From: a bacterium
Lineage (GTDB): Bacteria > Patescibacteriota > Patescibacteriia > UBA10025
Length of the DNA: 64,000 bases
Assembly (NCBI GenBank): GCA_021815445.1
Contig: JAKAGM010000002.1
Coordinates: forward strand, 31,373 to 95,372
Reading direction: 5' to 3'
Below the pieces are notes generated by a model. It saw nothing but the letters and a program-made list of their open reading frames with translations. It had not been told where the DNA came from and did not search any database. Both the position numbers and the translations under genes were made by a program. This document shows, piece by piece, positions 3,454 through 54,176 of this stretch (within the stretch, counting starts at the first letter, position 1; the number at the start of each line of letters is the position of its first letter).

Positions 3454-4527
3454 ATGAACATCCTTGATGACATGAAAAAAATTATACGGCTGGACCGGCA
3501 GAATATGCGCGGGTCTATTGACGCACTCCCTGACCAGATACGGCATGCATGGGCGGAGAGCAGGAAGATAAAATTTCCTGCCCGCTATGCTCAGGCAAAA
3601 AAAGTTGTCGTCGCAGGCATGGGCGGCTCCATCATCGGCGCTCATCTTTTAGAATCAGTTTTTGCCGATGAGTTCAAAGTTCCGTTTGTACGGCTCGGCG
3701 ACTATCGTTTACCAGCTTGGGTGGGTCGCGATACGCTGGTGATTCTCTCCAGCTATTCGGGCACTACAGAGGAGGTTCTCGCGATGGGCAAAGATGCGCT
3801 CGCACGCGGGTGCATGGTGGCGGGTCTATCCGCGGGCGGGACTCTTGCGCGGATGATGAAGGCCCGTCGGTTGCTGTGGTATCACATTGCTCCGACATTC
3901 AACCCTTCTAACCAACCCAGAATGGCTACCGGCTACATGGTTTTTGGGCTGCTTGGTTTATTGTCGCGGCTCCGATTCGTGCACCTCGGCAGCCGGGATG
4001 TAGAGCATATAGTTGCCACATTGCAAGCAAAGCACCACCATCTCGGAATCAAAAAACCGGTACGTAATAACATCGCAAAAACGATTGCCGCGAGACTTGT
4101 CGGCAAATATATCCTCTTTGTTTCTGCGGAACACTTAATCGGCAACGGGCATATCGCCGCAAACCAAATTAATGAGAATGCAAAACAGTTTGCCGCGTAC
4201 TTTTCCCTGCCGGAACTCAATCATCATCTCCTGGAAGCGCTCCGGTTTCCGCGTGAAAATCGGCGCCTGCTCACTGCCGTCTGCTTCCAATCACAGCGTT
4301 ATCACCCGCGGAACCAGCGCCGAGTAAATGCCACTGTCCGCATCCTCCAGCAACAGGGTATCCGCGCGATCATGGTCCCTGTGCGGGGGAAATCCAAACT
4401 TGATGAGGCATTACAAACTGTCCAGCTCGGTGCGTATTCCGGTTACTATCTTGCCATCCTGAACAGGCTAAACCCGGCGCCTATTACCTGGGTCGATGCG
4501 TTTAAGCGCATCATGGCCAGGGCGTAA
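3454..4527 (+). CDS. Bifunctional phosphoglucose/phosphomannose isomerase (SIS domain, archaeal-type PGI/PMI)
   Basis: VVVAGMGGSIIGAHLL and SSYSGTTEE motifs. The ~350-aa length fits the PGI/PMI family. Confidence 0.65.
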   Translation: MNILDDMKKIIRLDRQNMRGSIDALPDQIRHAWAESRKIKFPARYAQAKKVVVAGMGGSIIGAHLLESVFADEFKVPFVRLGDYRLPAWVGRDTLVILSSYSGTTEEVLAMGKDALARGCMVAGLSAGGTLARMMKARRLLWYHIAPTFNPSNQPRMATGYMVFGLLGLLSRLRFVHLGSRDVEHIVATLQAKHHHLGIKKPVRNNIAKTIAARLVGKYILFVSAEHLIGNGHIAANQINENAKQFAAYFSLPELNHHLLEALRFPRENRRLLTAVCFQSQRYHPRNQRRVNATVRILQQQGIRAIMVPVRGKSKLDEALQTVQLGAYSGYYLAILNRLNPAPITWVDAFKRIMARA

Positions 4528-40498: not shown

Positions 40499-40551
40499 TT
40501 CTTTATATCTTTTACTTGTCATTGCGATCCCGCATAGCGGGAGAAGCAATC

Positions 40552-40863
40552 TCATACTGTGTCATCATCATACCACCCATCGCTTAGGTCTTTCCAATCT
40601 GGATTGATGCTATTTACCAAATCAATCTTCTTTTTTCGCGATCCGGCTTTTATTTGTTTTTCTCTGTAAATTGCATCATCGATATATTCGAATTCCTCAT
40701 AGTAAACAAGTTTCGTGAGATTGTACCTTTTTGTAAAGCCTTCGATTTCTTTCTTTTTATGCTGCAGGACACGTACCTCAAGTCCACCCGTTACCCCAGT
40801 ATAGAGTGTTGTATTTCCTTTATTGGTCATGATGTAGACGCAGTAGCTCTGTTCTTCACGCAT
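40552..40863 (-). CDS. GIY-YIG nuclease family protein (small, ~100 aa)
   Basis: YCVYIMTNKGNTTLYTGVTGGLEVRVLQHK is a GIY-YIG module. A CCCCCGCCTTTCGCGAAAGGCGGGGG hairpin lies upstream. Confidence 0.7.
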   Translation of the reverse strand: MREEQSYCVYIMTNKGNTTLYTGVTGGLEVRVLQHKKKEIEGFTKRYNLTKLVYYEEFEYIDDAIYREKQIKAGSRKKKIDLVNSINPDWKDLSDGWYDDDTV

Positions 40864-40980
40864 AACAAAGTAAGAGATTGCTTCGTCGCCCCCCGCCTTT
40901 CGCGAAAGGCGGGGGTGCTCCTCGCAATGACACGAATAATGAACGAACTATAAAAGCTCCTGTACCCTGCTCACCACCCG

Positions 40981-53415: not shown

Positions 53416-53583
53416 CATGGGATGCAATATTCACAAAAAGCCAGCTCAGCGGCGGTGAGTGGCGGGCGATTTATGAGTTCCGGAGCGGAGGAGGTGACGC
53501 CACAAATCGGTGGGGCAGGGATTTGTTACGGAACAAGCCCCAAACGGAGGAGAGAGGATTCGTCACGGGGGGAACCTGCAAAA

Positions 53584-53670
53584 CGGAAGGGGTGAGATTC
53601 GAACTCACGAAGCCCGTGAAGGCTTATCGGTTTTCGAGACCGACCCGTTCGACCACTCCGGCACCCTTCC
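53584..53670 (-). tRNA. tRNA-Ser (anticodon CGA), type II with long variable arm; CCA not encoded
   Basis: Minus strand GGAAGGGTGCCGGAGTGGTCGAACGGGTCGGTCTCGAAAACCGATAAGCCTTCACGGGCTTCGTGAGTTCGAATCTCACCCCTTCCG. Acceptor, D, anticodon (TCGGT/ACCGA stem, loop CTCGAAA) and T arms fold by hand. Confidence 0.8.
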
Positions 53671-53680
53671 ACTTTGAAGG

Positions 53681-53944
53681 CTACTTTTGTATATCAAGTA
53701 GCAAGTCGCGGATCTGCTGCTTAAGGAATCTTTTACCTTCAGTCGTTTTTAAATATTTTTCACGCCGTTCTGCGTCCGATTTTCTTGAGTAAACTTCATA
53801 ATGCACCAACCTAAGCGGGTGCCGATACTGAGTTGATTTTACTTTCCCATTTTTATGTTGCTCAAGCATACCTTCTAGATTTGTAGTGAAACCAGTATAC
53901 AACTGTTTGTTGGAAAGTAATAATATGTAAACGTAGTTGTTCAT
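53681..53944 (-). CDS. GIY-YIG nuclease family protein (small, 87 aa)
   Basis: YVYILLLSNKQLYTGFTTNLEGMLEQHKNG is the GIY-YIG core. It lies between a tRNA-Ser and a duplicated tRNA 5' half. Confidence 0.75.
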   Translation of the reverse strand: MNNYVYILLLSNKQLYTGFTTNLEGMLEQHKNGKVKSTQYRHPLRLVHYEVYSRKSDAERREKYLKTTEGKRFLKQQIRDLLLDIQK

Positions 53945-54005
53945 ATAATTCAGGTAGCGGTTTTCGCCCTGTCATTCGACAGGGCGCCCCGAGTTTATCT
54001 CGGGG

Positions 54006-54041
54006 CGAGACCGACCCGTTCGACCACTCCGGCACCCTTCC
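54006..54041 (-). pseudogene. Duplicated 5' half of tRNA-Ser(CGA): 36 nt, acceptor through anticodon loop position 35
   Basis: Identical to nt 1-36 of the complete tRNA. It is followed by two hairpins (CCCCGAG-ataaa-CTCGGGG and CGCCCTGTC-gaat-GACAGGGCG) and not by a 3' half. Confidence 0.7.
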
Positions 54042-54176
54042 ATTCAGGGCTCCAGTGTATATAAAAAATTGGATTTAGGCAATGCTTACAACACGATCAG
54101 ATTTCATTGTATAAGGAGGTCCCGAGATCCTTCACTGCATTCAGGACATGGTTCGGGATGACAGACTCAAGTTGAA

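Follow-up and report, generated by a model that had tools for sequence, protein, structure and literature searches.

The GIY-YIG homing endonuclease SegB belongs to the tRNA cluster of bacteriophage T4. In tRNA genes, it recognizes the sequence GGTTCRANTCC and cuts so that 2-nt 3' overhangs remain; it spreads along with the tRNA genes on its flanks, is enriched beside tRNAs of many isotypes, and drives the segmental amplification of tRNA genes along with segB (PMC2330249, PMC13096335). Here, we describe a locus that invites comparison with SegB in a 64,000-nt stretch of DNA from a member of the Patescibacteriota (contig JAKAGM010000002.1, positions 31,373–95,372; the whole stretch is called the window below), where a gene for an 87-amino-acid (aa) GIY-YIG protein lies between an intact tRNA-Ser(CGA) gene and a partial copy of it. 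With a probability of about 0.6, we read this feature as an old resident copy of a selfish cassette specialized on tRNA genes. The cassette is widespread and apparently undescribed, its closest kin being the SegB-like tRNA-associated GIY-YIG selfish elements, and it has three parts. The first is a partial tRNA copy in which a loop is interrupted by a 40-nt dyad-symmetric double hairpin, at the CG of the palindrome TYCGRA (TTCGAA in the T loop, CTCGAA in the anticodon loop). The second, as judged from its product, would be a minimal stand-alone GIY-YIG nuclease gene. The third is an intact tRNA gene that starts 0–12 nt past the stop codon or overlaps it.

The cassette resembles SegB in that its junctions lie within the same T-loop motif (TTCG/AATCC, the slash marking the junction), and in its many isotypes, the replacement of tRNA alleles, and the presence of tandem arrays. 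Unlike SegB, it encodes a bare UPF0213/Slx1-like catalytic domain of 87 aa without a DNA-binding domain, is found in cellular chromosomes (mostly those of Patescibacteria), has its stop codon fused to the 5' end of the tRNA, and carries a conserved double hairpin in a systematically broken tRNA copy. SegB also cuts near the 3' end of the tRNA, whereas the cassette junctions lie in a loop.

GIY-YIG proteins of the small UPF0213/YhbQ-like kind are numerous, and structures of them date back to 2005, but we know of no established function for them. In the literature searched, we found no report of tRNA-gene linkage, hairpins, or mobility of UPF0213 proteins. Members of UPF0213/COG2827 (Bacillus halodurans BH0048, 1ZG2; Enterococcus faecalis EF2693, 1YWL) are the best sequence and fold match to the window protein, and share Foldseek ranks 1–10 with Slx1. 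The latter cleaves branched DNA in a structure-specific manner and, unlike the cassette protein, possesses a RING domain and needs the partner Slx4. A similar logic is said to operate in the mitochondrial atp6 gene of Allomyces, where, in the 1994 work of Paquin et al., an endonuclease open reading frame (ORF) reportedly invaded the gene along with a replacement piece, leaving the displaced piece as a pseudogene. There, too, an endonuclease gene and a duplicated or replaced segment keep the host gene whole, with the difference that the target is a mitochondrial protein-coding gene.

Three further systems share single features with the cassette. The double-hairpin elements of fungal mitochondria are short, G+C-rich, and regarded as potentially mobile (PMC10085805). 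The cassette doublets likewise consist of two adjacent hairpins that form one unit with a CG in common, 40 of them at a fixed 20-nt spacing, but they are confined to tRNA fragments, whereas the mitochondrial elements have other sequences and are scattered over intergenic regions and rRNA genes. The rRNA genes of the candidate phyla radiation (CPR) carry GIY-YIG-encoding insertions that are not introns, often at the top or base of a stem-loop (PMC11270868). These come from the same group of organisms and also place GIY-YIG ORFs in genes for structured RNAs; however, their target is rRNA, tRNA is not mentioned, and the description includes neither a partial duplication nor a hairpin doublet (PMC11270868). 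Integrase islands at tRNA genes (attL/attR) resemble the cassette in that a partial tRNA copy flanks the insert and an intact tRNA is regenerated, but the window cassette is 371 bp long, has no recombinase, duplicates the 5' part of the tRNA, and has breakpoints marked by hairpins at a loop CG. The open-access literature that we searched contained no description of a cassette uniting GIY-YIG, tRNA, and hairpins. If mobile, this unit of approximately 300–370 bp, which encodes nothing beyond a catalytic domain, would be smaller than any other self-contained mobile unit based on a nuclease that we know of.

In the window, the elements follow one another on the minus strand in the order 5' tRNA copy, double hairpin, resumption of the tRNA, ORF, 9-nt spacer, and intact tRNA. 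The intact tRNA-Ser(CGA) gene (53583–53671) was identified by ARAGORN and matches Rfam RF00005 with 56.9 bits. Its 5' copy (54006–54042) runs from position -1 to the second anticodon base, ends in CTCG, and is an exact 37-nt direct repeat of 53635–53671, a match far above chance expectation for a region of 900 nt. Thus, the duplication of the 5' part of this tRNA across the GIY-YIG gene, with no 3' half, which had been proposed in a sequence-only reading of the window, is borne out. The same reading had the duplicate end exactly in the anticodon loop, which is not the case: a 40-nt hairpin insert follows, and then the tRNA sequence continues for about 10 nt more. This resumed copy (53955–53966, CGAAAACCGcTA) represents the 3' side of the anticodon loop and the 3' strand of its stem, and agrees at 11 of 12 positions with CGAAAACCGaTA of the tRNA (53625–53636). 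Since the tRNA sequence resumes past the hairpins, they are to be regarded as a 40-nt insertion in the anticodon loop of a 5' copy of about 47 nt, and not as a spacer.

Two strong hairpins had also been seen between the half-tRNA and the start of the GIY-YIG gene, and both proved to be perfect 9-bp stems with a common CG. Hairpin 1 (53985–54007, CGCCCCGAGATAAACTCGGGGCG) is of the GATAAAC-loop type and folds with -12.1 kcal/mol as DNA (z = -7.6); hairpin 2 (53965–53986, CGCCCTGTCGAATGACAGGGCG) is of the GTCGnATGAC type (z = -6.7). When folded as DNA, none of 200 shuffles was as stable for either of them. The ORF (53681–53944) is the only one enclosed by the repeats, which are spaced 371 nt apart and flanked by housekeeping genes, and it is separated from tRNA +1 by the spacer at 53672–53680. 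A scan for consensus promoters gave no site upstream of the 5' copy and one weak site within the ORF.

One might suspect an assembly error wherever a repeat is exact. The identical protein and arrangement are, however, present on eight contigs, and an independent Logan assembly breaks within the repeat, which is the usual behavior of short-read assemblers at true repeats; on these two grounds, the locus is not an assembly artifact. Neither of the outcomes that would have spoken against the feature was observed, since the relatives described below hold the half-tRNA together with a GIY-YIG gene.

The 87-aa protein matches the Pfam GIY-YIG family PF01541 over residues 3–71 (E = 2.6e-13; 50.5 bits, with a cut-off of 22.6). 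A profile search of PDB matched UPF0213 proteins only, namely BH0048 (1ZG2, E = 1.2e-11) and EF2693 (1YWL, E = 1.9e-11), and the size of the protein agrees with UPF0213/COG2827, whose members are single domains of approximately 90–100 aa similar to these two. An AlphaFold2 model (predicted local distance difference test, 91.2) shows the fold of the family, a three-stranded sheet with helices, in the element order E-E-H-E-H-H-H; with this model, Foldseek returned from PDB the UPF0213 proteins first, then Slx1 nuclease domains, and then the UvrC N-terminal domain. The whole 87 aa are taken up by the GIY-YIG fold and short C-terminal helices, with no DNA-binding domain. The closest named homologs come from Patescibacteria, and neither PHROGs nor NCBIfam provided a family match. 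A phage origin was considered and rejected: besides the lack of a family in these two collections, a scan of viral contigs produced a single weak match, 48% identical and with no tRNA nearby.

The residues conserved among 120 relatives include Y6, Y16, G18, R26, H30, and E62. The window protein keeps Y4/Y6, Y16, G18, H30, and E62 of the catalytic set; its position 26, presumably equivalent by spacing to Arg27 of I-TevI (G19/R27/H31 in that enzyme), is Met (codon 53867–53869, minus strand). Arg occupies this position in 119 of the 120 relatives, and Met is found in the window protein alone, which consequently does not present the complete GIY-YIG catalytic set, made up of the Tyr of GIY, the Tyr and Gly of YIG, an Arg eight and a His or Tyr 12 residues past that Gly, and the Glu. 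Met26 is not a read error, because the identical protein occurs on eight contigs. With Met in the position of the catalytic Arg, the window protein is a GIY-YIG homolog but probably an inactive nuclease, and a test of endonuclease activity, as had been suggested, would probably fail if performed with this copy.

A scan of a genome collection with a 30-sequence profile found 80 loci in different species, which together with the loci from look-ups make up 81 non-redundant loci (our locus numbers begin with L). The hosts are Patescibacteria, Lentisphaerota, Kiritimatiellia, Cloacimonadota, and metagenome-assembled genomes (MAGs) labeled Pseudomonadota. As expected of a homing gene, the nuclease gene sits beside its presumed target family, not only in the window, where it is 9 nt from tRNA-Ser, but also in 71 of the 81 loci, which have a tRNA on the same strand (58 within 70 nt downstream and 13 within 130 nt upstream); the background density in these loci is 0.09 tRNAs per kb. 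Most of the other loci have tRNA fragments, or the end of the contig, at the spot where a tRNA would be expected. Twelve isotypes adjoin cassettes: Ser (with four anticodons), Arg, Gln, Asn, Thr, Tyr, Lys, Leu, Ala, Gly, Glu, and Pro.

The distance from the stop codon to tRNA +1 is 0–12 nt in 34 of 59 loci, and in another 20 of the 59 the stop codon is inside the tRNA, where in 11 cases it is the TAG formed by U8-A9-G10. Loci on our list of such overlaps are L019, L021, L022, L027, L040, L044–L046, L060, L072, and L073. One may speculate that where the ORF ends inside the tRNA, RNase P cleavage of a shared transcript would create a non-stop mRNA and so act as a brake on nuclease expression.

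Most tRNA-linked loci also hold a partial copy of the linked tRNA. In loci with a downstream tRNA, a tRNA copy that begins at +1 and ends at position 36/37 or in the T loop is usually found within 250 nt ahead of the ORF, and at least 13 of these partial copies are perfect over 36–72 nt. Where the tRNA is upstream, the layout is mirrored, with an intact tRNA, the ORF, GGTTCG, the hairpins, and then AATCC through to the 3' end (L017, L018, L030, L036, L042, L047, and L071). Like the window, the relatives retain 3–10 nt of tRNA past the hairpins.

The position at which the copies are broken follows a rule. The hairpin doublet interrupts them after CG, either in the T loop (TTCG/AATCC) or in an anticodon loop that contains CG. 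The dinucleotide precedes 37 of 41 regular doublets (TTCG in 26, CTCG in 6, TCCG in 3, and TGCG and CGCG in 1 each), and the sequence past the doublet is AATCC or AGTCC in the T loop, and AAAA or AAG/GAAC in the anticodon loop. Anticodon-loop junctions of the M1 type are present only in tRNAs with a CG in that loop, that is, Ser-CGA, Arg-TCG, Arg-CCG, and Arg-GCG.

The core motif of the hairpins, [GA]TCATnCGA[CT] or its complement, has a frequency of 4.1 per kb beside the ORFs. This falls to 0.058 per kb in the remainder of these loci and to 0.022 per kb in control Patescibacteria-like loci totaling 411 kb, so that the motif is enriched 70- to 190-fold. Matches away from the ORFs that can form a stem are again located in tRNA fragments, and matches in the control loci are stemless, except for one in a locus that has a GIY-YIG gene (L160). 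There is only one doublet in the whole of the 64-kb window. Adjacent hairpins are (+,-) oriented and exactly 20 nt apart in 40 of 46 pairs, and from this fixed spacing it follows that the doublet is dyad-symmetric. It sits centrally in the palindromes TTCGAA and TCGA, with a CG on each side; we infer that these flanking CGs match a 2-bp target duplication, as might arise from the 2-nt 3' overhangs of GIY-YIG enzymes such as SegB.

The stems show compensatory changes. In 90 distinct hairpin units, such changes were found in seven of the nine stem pairs, where two of the nine are fixed by the motif used for extraction and the other seven are free. Paired cells amount to 91%, as compared with 75% in shuffles (none of 500 was that high) and 26–40% in slid controls. 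Hairpins of the GATAAAC-loop type, to which window hairpin 1 belongs, occur at the same junction in L007, L013, L014, L058, L063, and L079. Both this type and a Leu-specific type, whose junction follows CA, accompany particular clades of the protein. L049 and L077 (tRNA-Leu) and L062 (tRNA-Arg TCT) fall in outgroup clades of the protein tree and have different hairpins, for example, CCATGCACnnCGTnGnGTGCATGG; the junctions of these outgroups in the anticodon loop follow CA or TC, not CG. This may mean that the type of hairpin and the site targeted vary together with the clade of the protein.

The age of the insertion can be estimated from syntenic relatives. In L002, L003 (with L005), and L006, the GIY-YIG protein is 72–79% identical to that of the window, and the neighboring MJ0043_C-domain protein of L002, L003, and L006 is 59–67% identical; directly before tRNA-Ser(CGA), these three have the layout of the window, with a 5' fragment, hairpins, CGAAAA..., and the ORF. 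The ratio of nonsynonymous to synonymous substitution rates (dN/dS) of the ORF is 0.10 for L001/L002 and 0.09 for L003/L006, demonstrating purifying selection; in the remaining pairs, synonymous sites are saturated, with proportions of differing sites of 0.8–0.9 (pS, synonymous) versus 0.13–0.17 (pN, nonsynonymous). The upstream 5' fragments of these relatives are diverged, or derive from other tRNA-Ser alleles and not from the tRNA of the locus itself, and matching 3' pieces are found downstream of the intact tRNA, again beside hairpins. Positions 3565–3619 of L003, for instance, are a perfect 55-nt 3' half of an L006-type tRNA, and 3388–3421 of L002 are a fragment of a window-type tRNA. As L002, L003, and L006 have the cassette in common and carry fragments of foreign alleles, the insertion in this clade is old and was followed by exchanges of tRNA alleles.

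This bears on the earlier suggestion that the feature is the footprint of an insertion or homing event. The cassette character was upheld, with the same type recurring in about 70 of 81 relatives and at 12 isotypes, but the idea of a fresh target-site duplication was not: cassettes at the same locus, synonymous sites that are saturated relative to the window, and 5' halves that are diverged or of another allele all show the locus to be old. The perfect 37-mer of the window is probably secondary, the product of recent gene conversion from the adjacent tRNA. A comparable case is visible in L058 and L063, which share hairpins, the ORF (88% nt identity), the tRNA (100%), a 13-nt trailer, and a 3' remnant. 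In L058, the 5' fragment and the 3' remnant represent one displaced tRNA allele; in L063, the 5' fragment has become identical to the tRNA of L063 itself, so that by comparison with L058 its perfect copy is visibly secondary. Between these two, protein identity of the ORF is 87.5% and tRNA identity is 100%, with a neighboring gene at approximately 50%.

Several observations relate to movement. L033 and L036, which belong to one MAG, contain a nearly identical unit of ORF, GGTTCG, and doublet with different flanks, and the doublet-bearing unit of L010 (a tRNA of full length whose T loop contains the doublet, then the ORF, then an intact copy) has a counterpart in L041, where the same unit of doublet, 3' end, spacer, and ORF lies in a different context. 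Tandem arrays of two or three units are present in L015 and L029. The arrays at L015 2350–3140, L029 1700–2760, and L033 27–600 are made up of units of tRNA fragment, doublet, and GIY-YIG ORF before a single intact tRNA, and resemble the SegB-driven segmental amplification in phage T6. Directly upstream of its main cassette, L002 has a second, nested one (2570–2900) that encodes an 86-aa GIY-YIG protein of 41% identity; ahead of it stand GGAGAGGTGCCAG, two hairpins of a different type, and AGTGGGTTAAT, in other words a 5' fragment of tRNA-Ser whose D loop is interrupted. This looks like serial or nested invasion by another subfamily with another loop as its target.

Doublets without an ORF are located in T-loop fragments (GGTTCG, doublet, AATCC to the 3' end) at L042 4070–4130 and L064 1750–1800, and in L010, L020, and L057, where they lie just downstream of an intact tRNA. 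They could be either deletion derivatives or the result of autonomous movement of the doublet. The neighbor-joining tree of the ORF mixes host phyla and follows tRNA isotype only in part, at the low resolution that so short a protein allows. Taken together, the allele remnants, the near-identical copies in one MAG, and cassettes that are less diverged than their neighbors point to transfer.

Empty sites were sought in metagenome contigs that carry the neighboring 417-aa MJ0043_C-domain protein (80 loci, 50–58% identical), where synteny was lost and there was neither a downstream tRNA-Ser nor a GIY-YIG gene of the 87-aa type; in the absence of synteny, these 80 loci served as the control set. 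Exact-sequence look-ups of the neighbor, and of the widely sampled relative P0036 (24 contigs), returned the same context only. The sole GIY-YIG homolog in the control set (L160, 4435–4659, 41% identity) lies approximately 150 nt upstream of a tRNA-Ala on the same strand, about 1.7 kb from the only stemmed hairpin motif of that set (position 2764). In a widely sampled Moranbacteria population (L172–L179, 1818–3267), the gene for a large serine recombinase abuts the tRNA side of the cassette on the opposite strand, and this tRNA locus may also be used by an element of the integrase type.

How might such a cassette move? In the route that we envisage for cleavage and for repair or integration, the nuclease, probably as a dimer, would break the DNA of a tRNA gene at the loop CG, leaving 2-nt 3' overhangs by analogy with other GIY-YIG enzymes. 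Repair would then copy the cassette-bearing donor, or a copy of the cassette would integrate by a single crossover, with homology arms drawn from the tRNA sequence. Crossing over 5' of the hairpins would create the layout of the window (5' fragment, hairpins, ORF, intact tRNA), and crossing over 3' of them the mirror layout (intact tRNA, ORF, hairpins, 3' fragment). A hairpin-interrupted pseudo-tRNA with its ORF, resolved in these two ways, would account for both layouts and for the one long and one short tRNA arm of each subtype; it would also explain why the duplications start exactly at +1 and why an intact tRNA is always present. Since every insertion would either regenerate a whole tRNA or bring one with it, the effect on the host would be neutral, and the hairpin insert would abolish the target site in the broken copy. 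Candidate roles of the hairpins are a block of the target, binding of the protein, or that of a mobile unit in their own right. In the lineage of the window, the insertion predates the split from L002, L003, and L006. Later exchanges would have replaced tRNA-Ser alleles and deposited 3' remnants downstream, the 37-nt identity would go back to recent gene conversion with the neighboring tRNA as the donor, and the nuclease would since have lost its catalytic Arg (R26M).

A more far-reaching proposal is that these cassettes constitute an undescribed class of minimal mobile elements that crosses phyla, in which a UPF0213/Slx1-like nuclease of about 87 aa and a cognate double hairpin target TYCGRA in the T or anticodon loops of tRNA genes, use the tRNA as homology arms, and regenerate or import a whole tRNA. 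We regard this as quite possible, while leaning slightly against it. The protein might recognize stem-loop or cruciform DNA instead of a long sequence. If the proposal is true, it would give a first biological role to part of the long-orphan UPF0213 family and point to one cause of the turnover of tRNA-gene alleles in Patescibacteria.

Readers should weigh a number of points that speak against a selfish cassette. An 87-aa protein without a DNA-binding domain is unlike all characterized homing GIY-YIG enzymes, and sequence-specific targeting accordingly lacks an explanation. The retained intact tRNA carries the presumed target, so a simple homing model predicts self-cleavage. Among the metagenome loci and exact look-ups scanned, there was no pair of close relatives that differ in the presence of the cassette. 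A minority of loci have other hairpins or junctions (L049 and L077 after CA; L062), and the host taxonomy rests on provisional MAG labels, most of all in the case of 'Gammaproteobacteria'. Lastly, the cassette has long been inherited with its locus and the ORF is under purifying selection, which would also suit a function useful to the host.

That last point leads to the strongest of the alternatives, a domesticated or host-beneficial module in which the protein and the hairpin-bearing tRNA fragment serve the tRNA locus, whether by amplifying or replacing tRNA genes through the nuclease (as SegB does against tRNA-cleaving defenses), as a decoy for tRNA-targeting toxins, or in controlling tRNA transcription and processing. 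Long vertical retention at one locus with a dN/dS of approximately 0.1 is what one would expect of it, as is an ORF-tRNA fusion so tight that in many loci the transcript must be common; the tandem arrays in L015 and L029 would be in keeping with amplification, and SegB-mediated tRNA amplification does benefit its phage (PMC13096335). We nevertheless judge this unlikely. The fragments are truncated, bear extra hairpins or deletions (L006, L013, L026, L034, and L064), and vary in extent between relatives, much as pseudogenes do; the window copy, otherwise intact, has lost the catalytic Arg; and 12 isotypes, many phyla, and a patchy phylogeny fit mobility better than a fixed cellular role.

Next in order comes the possibility that the double hairpin is the mobile unit, comparable to miniature inverted-repeat transposable elements (MITEs), the double-hairpin elements of fungal mitochondria, or REPINs, and inserts at the CG of tRNA loops with the GIY-YIG protein acting in trans. 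The linkage of ORF and tRNA, and the tRNA duplications, would then be by-products of repairing hairpin-induced damage. Doublets in T-loop fragments far from GIY-YIG genes (L042 4088, L064 1766, L010, L020, and L057) could be explained in this way, as could extra single hairpins in the D loops and anticodon stems of broken copies (L013, L026, L034, and L064); the CG on each side of the unit would fit a 2-bp target duplication, and double-hairpin elements are held to be potentially mobile (PMC10085805). Yet virtually no doublets exist outside tRNA fragments, with no genome-wide dispersal of the kind seen with MITEs and REPINs: the window has one, and the control loci have no stemmed one except beside a GIY-YIG gene. 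The co-variation of hairpin type with protein clade suggests, moreover, a single co-inherited unit, and we consider independent hairpins a rather improbable explanation.

Far less credible is a leftover att-site duplication from a decayed integrase-mediated island or prophage in the tRNA-Ser gene. Partial tRNA copies beside tRNA genes are classical att sites, and a large serine recombinase gene does lie beside the cassette in L172–L179; however, the window repeats are 371 nt apart with a single 87-aa ORF, no recombinase between them, and housekeeping genes around, the duplicated part is the 5' and not the 3' one, and the same compact layout is present in about 70 loci. An intron-containing, split, or permuted tRNA gene can be dismissed, and so can an assembly artifact, since, although the anticodon loop is the canonical position for an intron, there is no matching 3' half after the ORF, a complete tRNA follows downstream, Rfam matched tRNA as the only family and no intron up to E = 1 (in agreement with the earlier exclusion of an intron), and the arrangement is repeated on eight contigs and in relatives. 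REP/RAYT (REPIN) and IS200/IS605 elements were also tried and rejected, there being no HUH (Y1) transposase and the GIY-YIG protein being the sole ORF.

If the locus is a selfish cassette specialized on tRNA genes, several consequences follow. The near-obligatory fusion to tRNA, the junction rule, and the covarying hairpins offer a concrete and testable role for a large UPF0213/YhbQ-like branch, and the SegB paradigm, a GIY-YIG nuclease and the tRNA T loop, would extend from phages to cellular genomes. The choice of target by so small a protein may be structure-specific, or may involve a dimer on a 6-bp palindrome within a stem-loop, which is relevant to nuclease engineering. The cassette would also account for the tRNA fragments and the rapid turnover of tRNA-Ser alleles in these Patescibacteria genomes. 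We recommend caution in annotating such tRNA fragments, which should not be mistaken for island att sites.

Downstream of the intact tRNA, the window contains two further sequences of note on the minus strand. A probable 3' remnant of another tRNA-Ser allele, from the T loop to the 3' end (CGAATCCTCTCTCCTCCG, 53545–53562), aligns with tRNA-Ser positions 71–89 of L003 and L005 with a score of 28, marginally above the shuffle maximum of 26, and has strong analogs in L002, L003, and L058. A possible second remnant (AATCCCTGCCCCACCG, 53508–53523) fits the pattern by position and register; aligned with several tRNA-Ser genes from the T loop to the 3' end, it scores 22, which is inside the shuffle range. 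The leader (the spacer at 53672–53680) and the trailer (53573–53582) of the intact tRNA are complementary, pairing imperfectly as an inverted repeat and in folding so as to extend the acceptor stem. Complementarity of 6–14 bp at the same place was also seen in L002, L003, L006, L048, L067, and L070, perhaps as a trace of tRNA import; as a feature of the family the idea was dropped, such pairing being present in 6 of 58 cassette tRNAs versus 2 of 70 control tRNAs.

The window has a second small GIY-YIG gene (40555–40863) with a G/C-rich hairpin upstream (40890–40915), which the sequence-only reading had taken as a hint of one mobile GIY-YIG family in this genome. Gene and hairpin are real, but there are two types of cassette and not one. 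The 103-aa product (Pfam GIY-YIG, E = 1.6e-13) is 39% identical to the 87-aa protein, has no link to a tRNA, and together with the hairpin lies in a separate cassette (40510–40939, minus strand). This is bounded by terminal inverted repeats that are bipartite and read TTGTCATTGCGA...GAAGCAATCT at one end and AGATTGCTTC...TCGCAATGACAA at the opposite end. The motif of these repeats is absent from all tRNA-linked loci. The repeats also flank relatives in L168–L170, which come from other Patescibacteria and, in one case, from Bacteroidota, where they are situated between unrelated housekeeping genes with no tRNA near. The second cassette thus looks like a member of a separate family of mini-cassettes bounded by terminal inverted repeats, and a very abundant one, with at least 8000 proteins.

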